A DNA stretch of 64,000 nucleotides from Escherichia phage NHEP1. The translations under genes were made by a program, and so were the position numbers. Within the stretch, counting starts at the first letter, position 1. Each line of letters starts with the position of its first letter. Location of the stretch: the sequence record PQ511146.1; one strand, written 5' to 3'. Below are positions 10,818-56,639 of this stretch, one piece after another. The notes under the pieces were generated by a model. The model worked only from the letters and a program-made list of their open reading frames with translations. It did not search any database and was not told where the DNA came from.

Positions 10818-10894
10818 TGGTCTCCACGGAGTGATTCGAACACTCGACCTCCTGATCCCAAATCAGGCGCTCTACCAAGCTGAGCTACGCGGAG
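10818..10894 (-). tRNA. tRNA-Pro (anticodon UGG)
   Basis: Manual fold of minus strand: 7-bp acceptor (one GU), D stem GCTC/GAGC, anticodon stem CCTGA/TCAGG, loop TTTGGGA, T stem GAGTG/CACTC with TTCGAAT loop, encoded CCA. Confidence 0.85.
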
Positions 10895-10905
10895 TATTTA
10901 TTATT

Positions 10906-10980
10906 TGGTGGCCCTGGGTGGAATTGAACCACCGTCTGGCGATTATGAGTCGCTTGCTTGAACCTTCCAGCTACAGGGCC
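10906..10980 (-). tRNA. tRNA-Met or tRNA-Ile2 (anticodon CAU)
   Basis: Manual fold: acceptor GGCCCTG/CAGGGCC, anticodon loop CTCATAA, T arm GGTGG-TTCAATT-CCACC, encoded CCA. Confidence 0.75.
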
Positions 10981-10981
10981 A

Positions 10982-11057
10982 TGGTGCTGATGGCAGGACT
11001 TGAACCTGCAACCTATTGATTACAAATCAATTGCACTACCAATTGTGCTACATCAGC
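10982..11057 (-). tRNA. tRNA-Thr (anticodon UGU)
   Basis: Manual fold: acceptor GCTGATG/CATCAGC, D stem GCAC/GTGC, anticodon stem ATTGA/TCAAT with loop TTTGTAA, T arm GCAGG-TTCAAGT-CCTGC, CCA. Confidence 0.85.
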
Positions 11058-11063
11058 AAAAGG

Positions 11064-11160
11064 TGCTAGGTGATGGAATCGAACCACCTATGTATTCAAC
11101 GACTACCTCGTCTATTTTCAGGATTAAAAATCCTCGCCCTTGCCAAAGGGCTTACCTAGC
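11064..11160 (-). tRNA. atypical tRNA-like gene (anticodon-loop-like UUUUUAA, possible tRNA-Lys-UUU variant or pseudogene) with about 30-nt extra region
   Basis: Good acceptor (GCTAGGT/ACCTAGC), D arm (GCCC-TTTGGCAA-GGGC) and T arm (GGTGG-TTCGATT-CCATC), but only a 4-bp anticodon stem (AGGA/TCCT), 97 nt long, no encoded CCA. Confidence 0.4.
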
Positions 11161-11258
11161 GCAATATGTCGACCATGTGGCTAGTCGGCGATGACGACTG
11201 TAACATTTGATAATCCGGTTCTGCTTCCGGCTTTCGCTTAATTACAAGGTCAACAATG

Positions 11259-11349
11259 TGGCGGAGAGTAATGGAATCGAACCATCATCGAGTCATCCTC
11301 AACGGGACGGTTTTCAAGACCGCTTGAGCACCATTGCTCCCTACCCTCC
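11259..11349 (-). tRNA. tRNA-Ser (anticodon UGA), class II
   Basis: Manual fold: acceptor GGAGGGT/ACTCTCC (one GU), anticodon stem GCGGT/ACCGT with loop CTTGAAA, long variable arm, T arm GATGG-TTCGATT-CCATT, encoded CCA. Confidence 0.75.
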
Positions 11350-11463
11350 TTTATAAATTACACTGATAATGACACTGATTTTCGAGCAGTTAGTGACTAG
11401 TATAAACGACGATAAATATCAATGTCATTATCTGTATGATTTATGCATTTAAAAATATAAATT

Positions 11464-11551
11464 TGGTGGTGAGTGATGGAGTCGAACCACCCGAATCGCA
11501 ATGATAACAGATTTACAGTCTGCCCCGCTACCCCTACGGAATTAACTCACC
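11464..11551 (-). tRNA. tRNA-Tyr (anticodon GUA), class II
   Basis: Acceptor GGTGAGT/ACTCACC, anticodon stem-loop GCAGA-CTGTAAA-TCTGT (as in E. coli tRNA-Tyr), T arm GGTGG-TTCGACT-CCATC, CCA; D arm could not be cleanly folded by hand. Confidence 0.7.
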
Positions 11552-11681
11552 TAAATACTAATATTTAAATTCTTTTTAAAATAGCTAGTGTTCTAACCAC
11601 TAACTATGAGGTATCGGTAAAGTGGTTACCGCCACTTGCCGAAGATTTACTCTGCTAAAGTAAGCTACATTAAAAAGAACT

Positions 11682-11756
11682 TGGCACCCCGTACTGGACT
11701 CGAACCAGTGTCAACGGCTTAGAAGGCCGCTGCTTTATCCACTAAGCTAACAGGGC
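11682..11756 (-). tRNA. tRNA-Arg (anticodon UCU)
   Basis: Acceptor GCCCTGT/ACGGGGT (two wobble pairs), D arm GCTT-AGTGGATA-AAGC, anticodon stem GCGGC/GCCGT with loop CTTCTAA, T arm ACTGG-TTCGAGT-CCAGT, CCA. Confidence 0.75.
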
Positions 11757-51970: not shown

Positions 51971-52481
51971 ATCTGGTGAACGATTCCATACCTTAAGCAG
52001 TTAATATCATTACAGAGCGTTTAAAGGCGGCTTACAAGCAACTCTCTATTTCGAGCGTAGCGAGAACGCACGTCCGTTTTGACCCAAATCACCATACGCT
52101 CGGATTTTAACCAAACCCTCGCGGTGTTTCTGTTGACACATTACCGCTCCTGAAATATGCTTATAGCATCGACACGTTCCAGCCATATGTCGATAAAGTC
52201 TTATTTTTTAAACATGTTGCCGGAATACTCACGGGTGGAACATGACCAACACACATGCATCTACAGAAACATCTGGAGGAGTGAAAGAGGAAAACTTCAA
52301 TTCTGAGGATTCTCTATCTCCGTCCCAGGTGGATCCTGAGGCTGATGACCTAACGTGGGAGGATATCATAGCCATCTGGTTCTCTATTATGCCTGAGCAC
52401 GAAGAGTTCAGAGGTGGGAGACTATAAAGCACCGAGCCCACATAAGTTTATCATGCTAAAGCATGGCCTGAAGAGGCAAAC

Positions 52482-52763
52482 GTGCATAATTCCATCGTAT
52501 TGGAACGTGTAAACCCTGTTCACACTCTCATTTCCAGAGGAGATTCCATGAAAATAGAGATATTTGGTGGGGCTGACAACACTCGTGGCCTGATTTACCT
52601 TGAATTCGATGAATCATACCTGCCAGAGGTGTTAAATATAGATGCTGTTGCGGAAGCCCTTGATGTAGACCCTAAAGATCTCTACTCCCGTGCTGAGATT
52701 GATGGTTGGGAAGAGACTCTGAACATTGATTTCAGTGAAGTAGTAGATGAACCTTTGGACTGA
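52482..52763 (+). CDS. hypothetical acidic protein (ERVNPxHTL motif; start uncertain)
   Basis: GTG start after AGAGG, or ATG 52551 after GAGGAG; N-terminal region paralogous to 10502-10771. Confidence 0.4.
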   Translation: MHNSIVLERVNPVHTLISRGDSMKIEIFGGADNTRGLIYLEFDESYLPEVLNIDAVAEALDVDPKDLYSRAEIDGWEETLNIDFSEVVDEPLD

Positions 52764-54191
52764 CACACAAGTCTGCTTTGCAGGTTTAGCTGCTCAGCTA
52801 AGGTTCTGGAGGCACCTATAACATCTTCCAACTAAATTTCCTACCAACACAGTTACTTACCTACCACACATGACTGTTTGCTTGTTTAGTGAGCAGTCAT
52901 CACTTGACATTCTTGCCTATCTTGATAAAATTAAGTTCTTCTCTTTTCTTTTACCGAGTAATTCGGGTTTTCTGTTCTCTTCGGTTTGAAGGGGTATGGA
53001 GATACACCTGAGTGAACAGGGTGAACAACCGAACCTTTAGCTATGGCATTAGCATGGCGAAGCGGACGGGTGACGAAAGAGGGGCCGGAGGACACCAGTC
53101 ACTGCCATATAGTATATGGGTGATAACCTGAAGAGTCTGAATAAGTGTTTAAGTACCAGTCAGAGGAAAAGGTGAATGGTAGCCGAAGGGGGAGGGGGGT
53201 TTCTTATATCTTTAATTTGTATACTTTATATACACTTGTAAACCAATTCAATTAGAATCTGTTTACCACACAAAGGGGATGGAGACAAATATCACCTATT
53301 AAACTTGAATTATTTATAGAAAATACCACAACACCCGTTAAGTCTTTGATTTTACACACAAATCTTACAAATATCCTACCTCCACATTTAACATACTTGT
53401 AACATATTCCATATCCTACCTGCCTGATCAATTTACTCCATCACATTCCCACATTTTCCCTGTCTGTACTACCCCACCCCCGCCGGGAGTCCCGTCATAT
53501 CTGGCTTTCCAGCAAATATCACACCAACAAATATCATCACCTGAAGAGGGTTTCATCCCATAATACCTGCCTTACCTGAAGAGCGCTTCATACACCACGT
53601 AAATTTTTTAATTGACCCCTCCCCGCCGCCAGAGAGGTTGGCTTTTCCCACACAGGCCTGAAGAGTCAGCCAGAAATATCTGAACAGGCAGTTATGTCCC
53701 GATTTTGTGCTTGTCCTACAGGAGTGCTGCCAGGCGGACGGAATGGGAATACTTCTCATTCTTATAATAATTCTCAAATATCGAGGCAGTGAGGCAAATT
53801 AATAGGCCAGGCCGTTCACACAGTGGCACAACATTTGCAATCTATCTTGTGTGGATGAATGAGAATACCTATCATTGTGAGAATGGTTATCATTACGGGC
53901 AATTTAACATAATACCCATTATGCGCACCACTGGCGATACATACAGGGATTGATAACATGGGTTACTGTTTACGCATATAACAATTATATTTCTTACTAT
54001 TTGTGTGGGATATAGTTAGCAACCAATAGATTAGATATTGACCTGCAGACTTCTGACCGTCCAGACGTCTAAACGCCCACACAACAAGGATTATACATAC
54101 ACTCCTGCATGTAACCAGGGCCGCAAAAATGCTACCATACCAGTTTGTAAATTTTTCATGCAGCACTTGACAAAGAGGAGAAAAACTTGTC

Positions 54192-54250
54192 TGACACAAT
54201 GTGACAATTTTGTCACTTTTGACACTTTTACCTTTGACACAATATGACAC
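54192..54250. repeat. cluster of TGACA(C) iterons
   Basis: TGACAC at 54192, 54220, 54235, 54245, GTGACA at 54201 and inverted copy TGTCAC at 54211, all within 59 bp. Confidence 0.75.
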
Positions 54251-54330
54251 AATAACGGCTGTTACTATTCCATATCTCACTGTTTACGCCTGAATAGTTT
54301 ACGCAAAAACTGTTTACACAGAGATGATAA

Positions 54331-54608
54331 GCCATGCCATTCGTTTGCATGAAAACAATTAACAAGATAACAATTGACAAGCTAACAGCCAACAAGCTGA
54401 CAGTTAATAAGTTAATAAGTTATGACATAATATAAAAGCAGGGCAACTATTAGAAGATCTATAGTTGCCTTGCTTGTTATGTCATGATTAACTAAATACA
54501 AGGCAACTATGATCTGAATAATAGATTGCAGACAAACTATCACGGGGGTGATTGTTACTGCTTTTATATTATGTCGCGACTCCGTCGCGCCATGCCATTC
54601 GTTTGCAT
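54331..54608. repeat. 20-bp direct repeats flanking an 18-bp inverted-repeat element
   Basis: Direct repeat GCCATGCCATTCGTTTGCAT at 54331-54350 and 54589-54608; inverted repeat GACATAATATAAAAGCAG (54424-54441) / CTGCTTTTATATTATGTC (54559-54576); inner palindrome GGCAACTAT...ATAGTTGCC (54442-54469). Confidence 0.75.
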
Positions 54609-55223
54609 AGTTGCCTTATTGTTACAGGTAAAACAATTACATTATTAATTATTTCTTATCTTTCTCTTAGTCATCTAATGATTCCAGTCAGTATAGTAAT
54701 GTACAGTAAACATTAGACGACTAAATATTTCTCTGTGTATAATAACTTATCGTGACAATTTCGAACTGTTTACGAAAAATGTTGACACCTGAGCTGATTT
54801 ATGTTATGCAGTTTACACGAATAATTATTTTATGCAGGTATTGACTATTCCGTTATTCTGTGGTTGGAATAAATACTTTGCAGACTATAGAATGGCGTGC
54901 GTACGTGAATTCTGAGATCTGGCGGCTATAGTTATACTCGATTTTTCGCGTAGAACACGCTTTCGATGCTGTGTAAGTGTATGACTTATAAAGATTTTTA
55001 GTTGTTGACAAGATATTGGAGATGTGCATCAGGTTAAAATTTGTGCAATAGCGGCATTACGTGCACTTTTGGGAGAGAAAACGGGTAAAAATGGCCCTGC
55101 TACCACACAATGAAAGATTATGCAATAGTTATTTTCCATGTATATTTGTACAGTATGTGGGATTGATGGCTAGTCAATTATTCCACTTGCCAGGTAGGGC
55201 CGTTTATGGTAGGAGAAGAGCAG

Positions 55224-55250
55224 ACAAAAAGAAAGGGGCCTTTAAGCCCC
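55224..55250 (-). terminator. rho-independent terminator at end of minus-strand early block
   Basis: Plus strand A-tract then GGGGC-CTTTAA-GCCCC; on the minus strand a stem followed by UUUCUUUUUGU, right after the 55271-55690 stop. Confidence 0.55.
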
Positions 55251-55270
55251 TTGATAATTCAGTTAAGAAA

Positions 55271-55690
55271 TTATAATGATTCGTATATTTCAAAAATCCG
55301 ATTTGCCAGGTCGTTACGGTAGCGGAATTTTTCATCGCGCTTGATCATTAAATCCTTATAGCCGTACTCTTTAAGCACTTCATTAACTTTATAGCGGCAT
55401 ACCTGCATATTATCTTGAGCGTCACCAATAAACTTGTTGCTGTGGTGCATTGCTTTAATTTCTTCTTCCAGGACCAGGGCAACTACCCGGACCGGATCAA
55501 GCTGATAGGCGGTAACATCTATGCGGCATTGTAGACGGCTTTTAACGTCTGCCACCGGATATACTGCAACCTCTTCCCCGTCAACATTGACAATAATTAG
55601 TTTACCATCGATTTCGAATCCTTTCGCCGCCGGACCGTGACAAAAAGCGTTATCAAAGCTATATGCCGGATTATCAGATTTAATGTTCAT
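55271..55690 (-). CDS. hypothetical early protein
   Basis: 139-aa ORF with AAGAGG RBS. Confidence 0.5.
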   Translation of the reverse strand: MNIKSDNPAYSFDNAFCHGPAAKGFEIDGKLIIVNVDGEEVAVYPVADVKSRLQCRIDVTAYQLDPVRVVALVLEEEIKAMHHSNKFIGDAQDNMQVCRYKVNEVLKEYGYKDLMIKRDEKFRYRNDLANRIFEIYESL

Positions 55691-55834
55691 GGTGTTTTTA
55701 CCTCTTAGTTAATTTTCTTACAACTTCCCTTCAAAAAAGAATATAGCAAAACTGCCGATCCCTGTCAACAAGGGATAGCATAATTTTTATGTGATCAAGG
55801 GGCTTTATCGCCCCTGACCATGCAACCTGTTGTA

Positions 55835-56098
55835 TTATTTGTTGCTCATCCAGTTTTCCCAAGCTGCCTGATAATCTGCCTCACTACGGCGGATCTCTTC
55901 TTGTTCTTCAAGCCGGATCTCTTCTTCCAGGTACCCCAAGATGTCAGCCTTTTTAGTCTGGCGCAACATCCAATCGTCTTTTTTGCGAGTAAAGATCTTG
56001 TACGCTTTCTCGCAAACTTCTTTTTTGCTACCTTTTTGGACTTCAAGAATTCTGTAAGCCATGTACTGAACTAGTTTGAGCTGGTCAAGACGTTTCAT
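55835..56098 (-). CDS. hypothetical early protein
   Basis: 87-aa ORF. Confidence 0.4.
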   Translation of the reverse strand: MKRLDQLKLVQYMAYRILEVQKGSKKEVCEKAYKIFTRKKDDWMLRQTKKADILGYLEEEIRLEEQEEIRRSEADYQAAWENWMSNK

Positions 56099-56161
56099 GA
56101 TGTTTTCCTCTTTATGGGGTTCTGGTTTGGTGGGGGCCTTTTGGCCCGTGTCATTATCTTA

Positions 56162-56434
56162 TTACTTACGGCGGCAAAATTCAAGTGTTTTTAATTGATA
56201 ATCTTCCTCAGCCTGGAGTACAACCGCCTCGATCATTTCGTTGGCATTGTTGAAGCCATACCCTTGAGCGAACTCATCCGCGCCACCTTTGTGATCATGT
56301 TCTGCGTTCATCGCTTCCACAAAATGGAATTCAAGATTATTGAGGTAGGGGCTTGATGTTCCGTCCTCTTTTTCGATGAGATCCCAGATAGCGTTAAAAC
56401 GTGATTCGACTTCTTGGTTAATCCAGCTTGACAC
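56162..56434 (-). CDS. hypothetical early protein (acidic)
   Basis: 90-aa ORF. Confidence 0.4.
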   Translation of the reverse strand: MSSWINQEVESRFNAIWDLIEKEDGTSSPYLNNLEFHFVEAMNAEHDHKGGADEFAQGYGFNNANEMIEAVVLQAEEDYQLKTLEFCRRK

Positions 56435-56639
56435 GGCGTTTTCCTCTCTTCTGGTTGTTGTGTGGGCACTTTTGCCCCTTCAAGGTAAATGCTACCCCAC
56501 CACCCGGCAGATGTCAACGGTTTTTATAGTTTTTTATATGACAGGCACCCCCGGTGATTGTCTCCCCCCGTCGCCAGGTGCCTGCCGTGAAATAAGCATA
56601 ACAAAAAACAGGACAAAAACAAGCCCTGTTTTGTAAAGA

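Follow-up and report, generated by a model that had tools for sequence, protein, structure and literature searches.

A 200-nt tract in a non-coding region of Escherichia phage NHEP1 is almost devoid of G on the plus strand, and we tentatively read it as a Rho utilization (rut)-type zone of Rho-dependent termination, which would halt rightward transcription before it enters a putative direct terminal repeat of the virion DNA. We hold this reading with more doubt than confidence, as several other explanations carry some weight and are discussed with the evidence that bears on them. All positions refer to the 64,000-nt stretch that was analysed (sequence record PQ511146.1; the window), which is assigned to Vequintavirus, i.e. 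to an rV5-like myophage. The element in question is:

53285 to 53484, plus strand: core G-depleted, C-enriched tract and candidate rut site, from composition, folding and comparison with relatives.

Within this core G accounts for 11 of 200 positions (5.5%), next to 31% C, 32% A and 31.5% T. It is the lowest-G 200-nt window of the 64 kb, the runner-up having 11.5%, and the binomial probability of at most 11 G in 200 nt is 5.6e-11, or ~4e-6 when multiplied by 64,000 start positions. The homologous segment of phage rV5 (104524-104723) contains 6.5% G and is extreme among the parts of the rV5 genome that were scanned. A sequence-only reading of the same DNA had described a G-depleted, C/T-rich tract of roughly 300 nt at 53280-53600. 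The depletion itself was borne out, with 33 G in 321 nt (10.3%) against a window mean of 22.4%, which is about 3.5 standard deviations below that mean (standard deviation 3.5% for 321-nt windows), but strong depletion extends over ~200 nt of it and 53485-53736 shows merely a mild excess of C over G. Similarly, C is enriched as described, whereas T and A are at genome-average levels. The repeated motifs were overstated on the whole: CCTACC does occur twice in 53280-53600, as ATATCCTACCT at 53371 and 53411, but CATATCC is present as a single copy and CCACAC has no copy there, the nearest ones being at 53266 and 53648. The 8-mer CAAATATC has five copies in the non-coding region and two elsewhere in the window. 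Two further segments share the strand bias of the core:

53485 to 53736, plus strand: further C>G zone, reaching to the putative repeat boundary (G 20.6%, C 28.6%).

52806 to 52875, plus strand: first short G-poor stretch, directly after the last plus-strand gene (G 8.6%, C 33%), in which 39 consecutive nt lack G and CCTACC occurs twice.

The tract is part of ~2.5 kb (52764-55270) that is mostly unannotated across GenBank records and separates a plus-strand gene block ending at 52763 from a minus-strand gene block whose last member is 55271-55690. The plus-strand unit is roughly 37 kb long and ends 520 nt before the tract, which is G-poor on the sense strand of the transcription arriving from there. 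Identity of the region is 97% to Escherichia phage vB_EcoM-ECP32 and ~90% to rV5 and about 120 other Vequintavirus genomes, the rV5 counterpart of 52764-55270 being rV5 104014-106617.

Upstream of the tract, three features follow one another in the direction of the plus strand:

52904 to 52931, plus strand: predicted near-consensus sigma-70 promoter, TTGACA-16-TGaTAAAAT, 11 of 12 matches with an extended -10, from a promoter scan.

52938 to 53204, plus strand: G-rich, near-invariant block of ~265 nt and candidate non-coding RNA, from the alignment (G 31.5%).

53205 to 53284, plus strand: AT-rich (72%), variable spacer with indels, from composition and alignment.

The predicted promoter lies ~350 nt before the tract and points into it, and both of its hexamers are invariant in 11 aligned Vequintavirus genomes. 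The block downstream of it combines 31.5% G with 17% C and is variable at 16 of 269 columns in these genomes, while the gene next to it varies at 38 of 215; identity of the block is at least 96.6% in 118 of 118 Vequintavirus records, and it was absent in other genera. It ends in GGGGGAGGGGGG-UUUCUU (GGGGGAGGGGGG at 53189; the whole end is GGGGGAGGGGGGTTTCTT), and conservation falls sharply at 53205, where the spacer begins that itself ends in the anchor CTGTTTACCACACAAAGGGGA, found in phage PVP-SE1 too. The invariant block probably encodes a non-coding phage RNA that has gone undescribed. A folded structure for it is unsupported (folding z=-1.5, no covariation), and it has no Rfam match: the Rfam 15 covariance models gave no match at E<=1 in 52000-56500, with tRNAs only in the whole window, and no match at E<=0.1 in the homologous regions of phages A73, Hena1, KB57 and phAPEC8.

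Considered as RNA, the plus strand of the tract has an excess of C over G across 70-80 nt, little structure and no translation, as is known for rut sites. The best 78-nt window, 53407-53484, contains 34 C, 5 G and 25 YC (pyrimidine-C) dimers and is the top C>G window of the plus strand in the 64 kb; for comparison, RhoTermPredict needs C/G >1 over 78 nt, with a mean of 1.6 for its predictions in E. coli (PMC6407284). Folding of the plus-strand RNA led to -13.9 kcal/mol over 211 nt (z=+1.5), and 192 of 200 shuffled sequences were at least as stable. No plus-strand intrinsic terminator was found by a scan between 53000 and 53740. Shortly after the core follows:

53503 to 53514, plus strand: small hairpin CUGG-CUUU-CCAG and candidate RNA polymerase pause/release site, read from the sequence.

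This hairpin is ~20 nt past the tract, and RhoTermPredict asks for a hairpin no more than 150 nt from the rut site (PMC6407284). Small GC hairpins are present throughout 53470-53515 (CCCGCCGGG, GGGAGUCCC and CUGGCUUUCCAG), and such hairpins are common. The sequence-only reading had offered three single-stranded functional states for the tract, of which transcribed RNA alone has support, albeit circumstantial, because of the conserved predicted promoter upstream on the same strand, the unstructured plus-strand RNA and the rut-like composition. A protein-coated region is weakened as an explanation because the short motifs inside the core are not conserved, and a replication initiation zone has no specific support among the findings here.

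From these observations we propose that the tract may template an unstructured, untranslated, C-rich and G-poor RNA that would serve as a rut site. Host RNA polymerase would arrive by rightward transcription from the ~37-kb plus-strand unit and, above all, from the promoter at 52904; Rho would load on the RNA of 53285-53484 and on the weaker C>G zone downstream, and polymerase would be released no more than ~250 nt further on, the hairpins of 53470-53515 being possible sites. Termination would in this way precede the entry of polymerase into the terminal repeat, or concatemer junction, at 53737-54191, the shielding of which would be the benefit, and would also spare the converging early unit from antisense transcription. 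The extreme tract accompanies the promoter and the invariant block, both of which are confined to Vequintavirus, while genera without the block are mildly C>G at this place. As it is found only alongside these two, the extreme tract may have evolved to handle a strong local promoter. A literature search for Vequintavirus transcriptomics returned nothing relevant.

The likeness to rut sites of E. coli and its phages (lambda tR1 rutA/rutB, trp t') is that of a C-rich, G-poor, unstructured and untranslated stretch of at least 70-80 nt, which is located after the last gene of an operon, has a small hairpin downstream and belongs to a predicted host-RNA-polymerase transcript. In contrast to these sites, the tract is longer (200-nt core, ~450 nt in total), has a C/G of about 5.6-6.8 instead of the typical 1.6, and is found in a virulent myophage next to a putative terminal repeat, with the role of Rho being a prediction from sequence. 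If true, such a Rho-dependent insulator would explain the terminators missing at the convergent junction, and a virulent myophage would rely on host Rho to exclude transcription from its concatemer junction.

Those missing terminators were already a subject of the rV5 genome paper (2013, Kropinski et al.), in which the locus is drawn as a grey, "non-coding" box without open reading frames (ORFs), and bidirectional terminators were anticipated at the convergent junction between genes 163 and 164, but none was found (PMC3606486). The promoters of rV5 were described as host sigma-70-type only, genome-wide, and the search for an origin led to the report of a GC-skew change at 104425-105475, which according to the authors coincides with the switch in transcription direction and is uninformative on the origin (PMC3606486). 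The locus studied here is the same; absent from the paper is the internal anatomy, i.e. tract, promoter, invariant block and link to a terminal repeat (PMC3606486). Relative to the searched literature, it is this tract, the promoter with the invariant block, and the terminal-repeat link that are new, and the empty box that was already known. As rV5-like phages are common in phage-therapy and biocontrol cocktails, a 2.5-kb box that has been without an assigned function since 2013 is of practical concern. It now has an anatomy of a bounded putative terminal repeat, a conserved element with a predicted promoter driving it and an extreme rut-like tract between them, and engineers of such phages can tell from the tract and the repeat boundaries at which sites an insertion would probably do harm or be tolerated.

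The lack of translation rests on a comparison of coding potential, in which the description of the tract as non-coding held, no conserved ORF being present on either strand in 11 genomes. Stop-free stretches over the tract vary in frame and length among these genomes, and 1-nt indels occur. Hypothetical proteins are nevertheless annotated at the tract in HMD-6, Murica, APCEc02, MiataMamis, Alma and Pr121LW, and would suggest that it encodes small minus-strand proteins, an explanation that we find hardly credible. The annotated ORFs are inconsistent between genomes in position, length and frame, and most annotators call none. The minus-strand ORFs 53252-53431, 53428-53556 and 53553-53777 have no PHROG match, unlike the two flanking genes, each with a family at E<=1e-44; the peptides would come from unconserved stop-free stretches with 1-nt indels, and 5.5% C on the supposed coding strand is implausible for coding sequence. 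Small "hypothetical protein" ORFs in GenBank cover both the tract and the invariant block, one of them being labelled "structural protein". These ORFs differ from record to record and are probably gene-calling artefacts.

Conservation in relatives, which the sequence-only reading had named as a check, concerns the composition more than the sequence, a pattern that also fits the termination reading. G content of the tract is 5.0-6.5% in 11 of 11 aligned Vequintavirus genomes, despite 47 variable columns among 204 (23%). Polymorphisms that involve G make up 10 of the 47, a share for which strand-symmetric mutation and the base counts predict 37.5% (p=0.013), and 50 of 93 in neighbouring non-coding DNA. 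As evidence of constraint this is modest, since the 11 genomes are close and alignment columns cannot be counted as independent of each other. With 77-97% identity per 40-nt window, the core evolves rather quickly for this region, and the CAAATATC copies inside it (53286 and 53368) are mutated in 8 of the 11 genomes. Outside Vequintavirus no alignment of the tract was found. In Septuagintavirus A73 the corresponding place holds an unalignable tract with 9-11% G on the equivalent strand, which immediately follows an intrinsic terminator, whereas the syntenic interval in PVP-SE1, Hena1 and KB57 is mildly C>G without significance (top 7-28% of windows), the strong skew being confined to Vequintavirus and A73.

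These data also bear on the question whether the tract has any specific function, or is a compositional accident or relic, e.g. the decayed antisense of former minus-strand genes or the product of mutational bias. Its place among the less conserved parts of the region and the limitation of strong skew to Vequintavirus and A73 would be expected of such a relic, and the aligned genomes are too close for the conservation of G content to decide. However, 5.5% G is far beyond the rest of the 64 kb, antisense of coding DNA in this phage skews only by ~-0.1 to -0.2, G-involving polymorphisms are under-represented, and an independent G-poor tract occupies the same place in A73. In addition, deamination of the non-template strand would lower C and not raise it. 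A functionless relic is thus quite unlikely, and the earlier statement that the tract is no neutral spacer has gained modest support from the kept G content, the deficit of G-involving polymorphisms and the tract of A73.

The boundary that transcription would be kept from is the left end of the following feature:

53737 to 54191, no strand assigned: putative direct terminal repeat of the virion DNA, 455 bp, from homology to the Hena1 boundaries and from record ends.

The repeat would start with GACGGAAT (left end ~53737) and finish with AAAAACTTGTC (right end 54191). The boundaries of the repeat in Erwinia phage Hena1, where A is followed by the cut and GACGGACAACC, and CTTGACAGGAAGATAGAAAAGTGTT is followed by the cut and TAGCAC, are clearly matched by sequences in both PVP-SE1 and the window. 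The segment includes 30 nt at 53902-53931 (ATTTAACATAATACCCATTATGCGCACCAC) with 87-93% conservation among relatives that include Seunavirus, Certrevirus, Henunavirus and Mydovirus, and no other non-coding sequence of the region is conserved as widely as this island, which spans at least five Vequintavirinae genera; its counterpart in Hena1 is located inside the annotated 519-bp direct terminal repeat. Record ends agree with these limits. The ECP2303 record ends in CACTTGACAAAGAGGAGAAAAACTTGTC, exactly at window position 54191, and starts at 54192; by their coordinates the YN3 and ECP2309 records end at 54191 too, and the bov11CS3 record starts at ~53733, near the left boundary. For Klebsiella phage KPP-1, a 514-bp repeat was derived from coverage and PhageTerm, and packaging was called T7-type (PMC9862379). 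From homology and record ends we infer that 53737-54191 is the direct terminal repeat of this phage; because Vequintavirus genomes have been called circularly permuted in some reports (PMC8407724; PMC13211470), the assignment is to be taken as putative. The tract is then 253-452 bp before the boundary at 53737, in the unique right-end segment of the genome.

Between tract and repeat there are two C-boxes (CCCCACCCCCGCCGGGAG at 53472 and CCCCTCCCCGCCGCC at 53615), three copies of CCTGAAGAG (53540, 53575 and 53657) and AAATATC motifs. A C-box followed by GCC(C)GGAG, and a composite of AAATATC...CCTGA, are colinear in PVP-SE1 and Hena1. The window contains seven CCTGAAGAG copies against 0.48 expected. 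Five of these are within 1.2 kb (52467, 53127, 53540, 53575 and 53657), all on the plus strand and all non-coding, and CCTGAAG(T/A)G is repeated in the syntenic region of PVP-SE1, with one copy in A73. An interpretation of CCTGAAGAG as a hammerhead core or a lambda boxB-like GAAGA pentaloop was rejected, since by inspection a hairpin is possible in one or two of the five copies.

The nearness of the tract to the left repeat boundary, the same-strand repeats (CCTGAAGAG three times, AAATATC) between the two and their colinearity in PVP-SE1 and Hena1 also fit a DNA-level packaging or end-processing element of the T7 pacB kind, which would be bound or melted by terminase or accessory proteins. The right end of T7 (phiOR, CCTAAAG repeats, pacB, 160-bp repeat) resembles the locus in having a non-coding segment left of a short terminal repeat, a promoter directed toward the repeat and heptamer-like repeats on the same strand, as seen for CCTGAAGAG and CCTAAAG or for ACCTGAAGAGGGT and T7 ACCTAAAGAGGGT; CCTAAAG/CCTAAGG repeats are found at the equivalent T7 position, and the T7-type call of PhageTerm for KPP-1 points the same way (PMC9862379). 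On the other hand, the conserved repeats are at 53513-53680, outside the core, which itself evolves fast and has its CAAATATC copies mutated in most of the genomes, and other genera with the same repeat boundaries do without strong G depletion. T7 differs in using its own RNA polymerase and in a right end with only mild C>G and no counterpart to the G-depleted core, and the number of 9-mers that it has in common with the window is as expected by chance. We also know of no packaging mechanism that demands depletion of one base on one strand. A packaging element is unlikely in our view, though less so than the other alternatives.

Several points weigh against Rho-dependent termination as well. 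RhoTermPredict-type criteria are permissive, with 23,930 predictions in E. coli, so that agreement with them is weak evidence (PMC6407284), and the tract is far longer and more G-depleted than a rut site requires. As the syntenic skew is not significant in PVP-SE1, Hena1 and KB57, the terminus region does not require such a tract across genera. Nearness to the putative repeat and to the repeated CCTGAAGAG and AAATATC motifs leaves room for a role in packaging at the DNA level. Finally, T7 probably depends on transcription toward its concatemer junction instead of blocking it.

The order of a strong predicted promoter, a G-rich block, a G5AG6 run, a 72% AT spacer and a nearly structureless strand may also be read as belonging to a replication origin primed by transcription. 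RNA started at the 52904 promoter would stay hybridised over the G-rich block and the GGGGGAGGGGGG run, the AT-rich spacer would melt, and the G-poor plus strand would be displaced, with a primase-helicase loading on it for a rightward fork. R-loop origins are known from ColE1 RNA II, T4 oriF and mitochondrial conserved sequence block II (CSB II; G5-6AG7-8), and T7 has origins at promoters near its ends. The likeness to such origins (ColE1 RNA II, T4 oriF/oriG and the mitochondrial light-strand promoter (LSP)-CSB II) consists of the promoter, the G-rich transcript with G5AG6 and the AT-rich segment, and the G5AG6 run presumably resembles human CSB II. To our knowledge no initiator protein has been described for these phages, which leaves room for such a mechanism. 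However, an R-loop calls for G-rich RNA over a C-rich template, and while the upstream block is G-rich, the plus-strand RNA over the tract has 5.5% G and 31% C, a polarity unfavourable for stable RNA-DNA hybrids with a rightward transcript. The favourable polarity would need a leftward promoter, for which there is only a weak candidate with 9 of 12 matches at 53937-53909. The predicted promoter and the block are specific to the genus and missing in other Vequintavirinae genera, which replicate too. The rV5 authors did see the skew change at 104425-105475 when they sought an origin, but it coincides with the switch in transcription direction (PMC3606486). Homology to any plasmid origin is lacking; for the tract region no plasmid match was found, the sole one being to a mislabelled Vequintavirus genome, and a search for DnaA boxes by inspection gave near-matches of 8 of 9 positions only. 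Altogether we regard an origin as quite unlikely, if slightly less so than a functionless relic.

A more specific form of this idea is that promoter, G-rich RNA, spacer and G-free strand would together be a start site beside the repeat, as a bacterial-virus analogue of mitochondrial LSP-CSB II with the G-poor strand as a structure-free loading zone for a primase-helicase, or else that the C-rich tail would be a Rho decoy; we give this pair a slim chance. The second possibility is related to the explanation of the tract as the 3' domain of a long non-coding RNA, in which a 265-nt head would carry a C-rich tail of 200-500 nt that acts in trans by offering an RNA-binding factor of the host, for instance Rho, a landing pad or a decoy. 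An abundant RNA would follow from the strong predicted promoter and the extremely conserved head, no intrinsic terminator separates head and tail, the tail is free of structure, and head and extreme tract co-occur in Vequintavirus only. The drop in conservation at 53205 and the indels in the spacer suggest, however, that the functional RNA ends there; furthermore, the whole 763-nt RNA (52938-53700) gave a global fold no better than shuffled sequences (z=+0.66), it belongs to no Rfam family, and we know of no precedent for such a tail. The trans-acting tail is for these reasons a decidedly improbable explanation.

Other relationships across the tract were considered and rejected. Long-range pairing of GGGGGAGGGGGG (53189) with the C-boxes was dropped, being, like the global fold, no better than in shuffled sequences; moreover the C-box variant of most relatives, CCCCTGCCCC, does not compensate, and on the opposite strand this variant reads GGGCAGGG. 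A reading of the locus in terms of FtsK and its orienting polar sequences (KOPS) was dropped as well, since GGGNAGGG flanks the tract convergently but is not enriched (7 copies versus 3.9 expected). The two copies of GGGGAGGG that match the KOPS pattern GGGNAGGG and face each other across the tract are at 53189-53196 (plus strand) and 53617-53624 (minus strand), and this convergent pair may be a coincidence. In a neighbouring gene annotated as "DNA translocase FtsK", Pfam finds no FtsK-gamma domain.

Additional observations concern the putative repeat and its right side. A tandem GAGAATACCTATCATT / GAGAATGGTTATCATT at 53862-53897, in a segment that is ~99% conserved, resembles a Fur box when its reverse complement TAATGATAACCATTCTC is compared with GATAATGATAATCATTATC, which we take to be the consensus, and the non-coding region of phAPEC8 (L012 5672-5692) carries the Fur-box-like AATGATAACCATTATCAT. 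Directly right of the repeat, 54192-54625 is hypervariable between genomes (31-58% column identity) and contains short direct repeats (six TGACAC, GTTTACGC/CTGTTTAC and AACAAGCTAACAG) as well as nested perfect palindromes at 54424-54625; it looks like an iteron array or a specificity region. The pseudo-ToxI RNA of phage phiTE was considered and rejected as a counterpart, being located in the tRNA/terminase region and not at this locus.

At the far side of the non-coding region, the end of the leftward unit shows two features on the minus strand:

55233 to 55252, minus strand: intrinsic terminator of the leftward unit, AAGGGGCTTAAAGGCCCCTT then TCTTTTTG, from a terminator scan.

54970 to 55169, minus strand: milder mirror-image tract, G-poor on the minus strand (plus-strand C 11.5%, 0.6th percentile).

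In the minus sense, the mirror tract is located just past the terminator of the last minus-strand gene, and rV5 has an equivalent at 106312 with 10% C. This last gene (55271-55690, minus strand) encodes 139 aa without a Pfam domain and is 85-90% identical in Phapecoctavirus (the phAPEC8 group) and Septuagintavirus, which far exceeds the overall similarity among these phages; it adjoins a large non-coding region in all three groups, Vequintavirus included. The unusual similarity of the gene together with this shared position suggests horizontal exchange of the genome end that carries it. In A73 (L011 5761-5940) and phAPEC8 (L012 5621-5770), sense-strand tracts of 6-7% G follow soon after the terminator of the 139-aa homologue and are stronger versions of the mirror tract at 54970-55169. 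Terminator and mirror tracts reflect the rightward side, in the window more weakly, and are counted here in favour of Rho-dependent termination at the core. A "transcriptional regulator" gene was dropped as a synteny anchor, as it is located elsewhere in PVP-SE1 and KB57, and an IMG/VR search with a flanking 71-aa protein led to close relatives only. Elsewhere in the window, a cluster of six or seven tRNA genes is present at 10818-11756 on the minus strand, including a 99-nt tRNA-like gene at 11062-11160 with a four-base anticodon according to ARAGORN and an Rfam tRNA match at 11467-11551 that was not called by ARAGORN.

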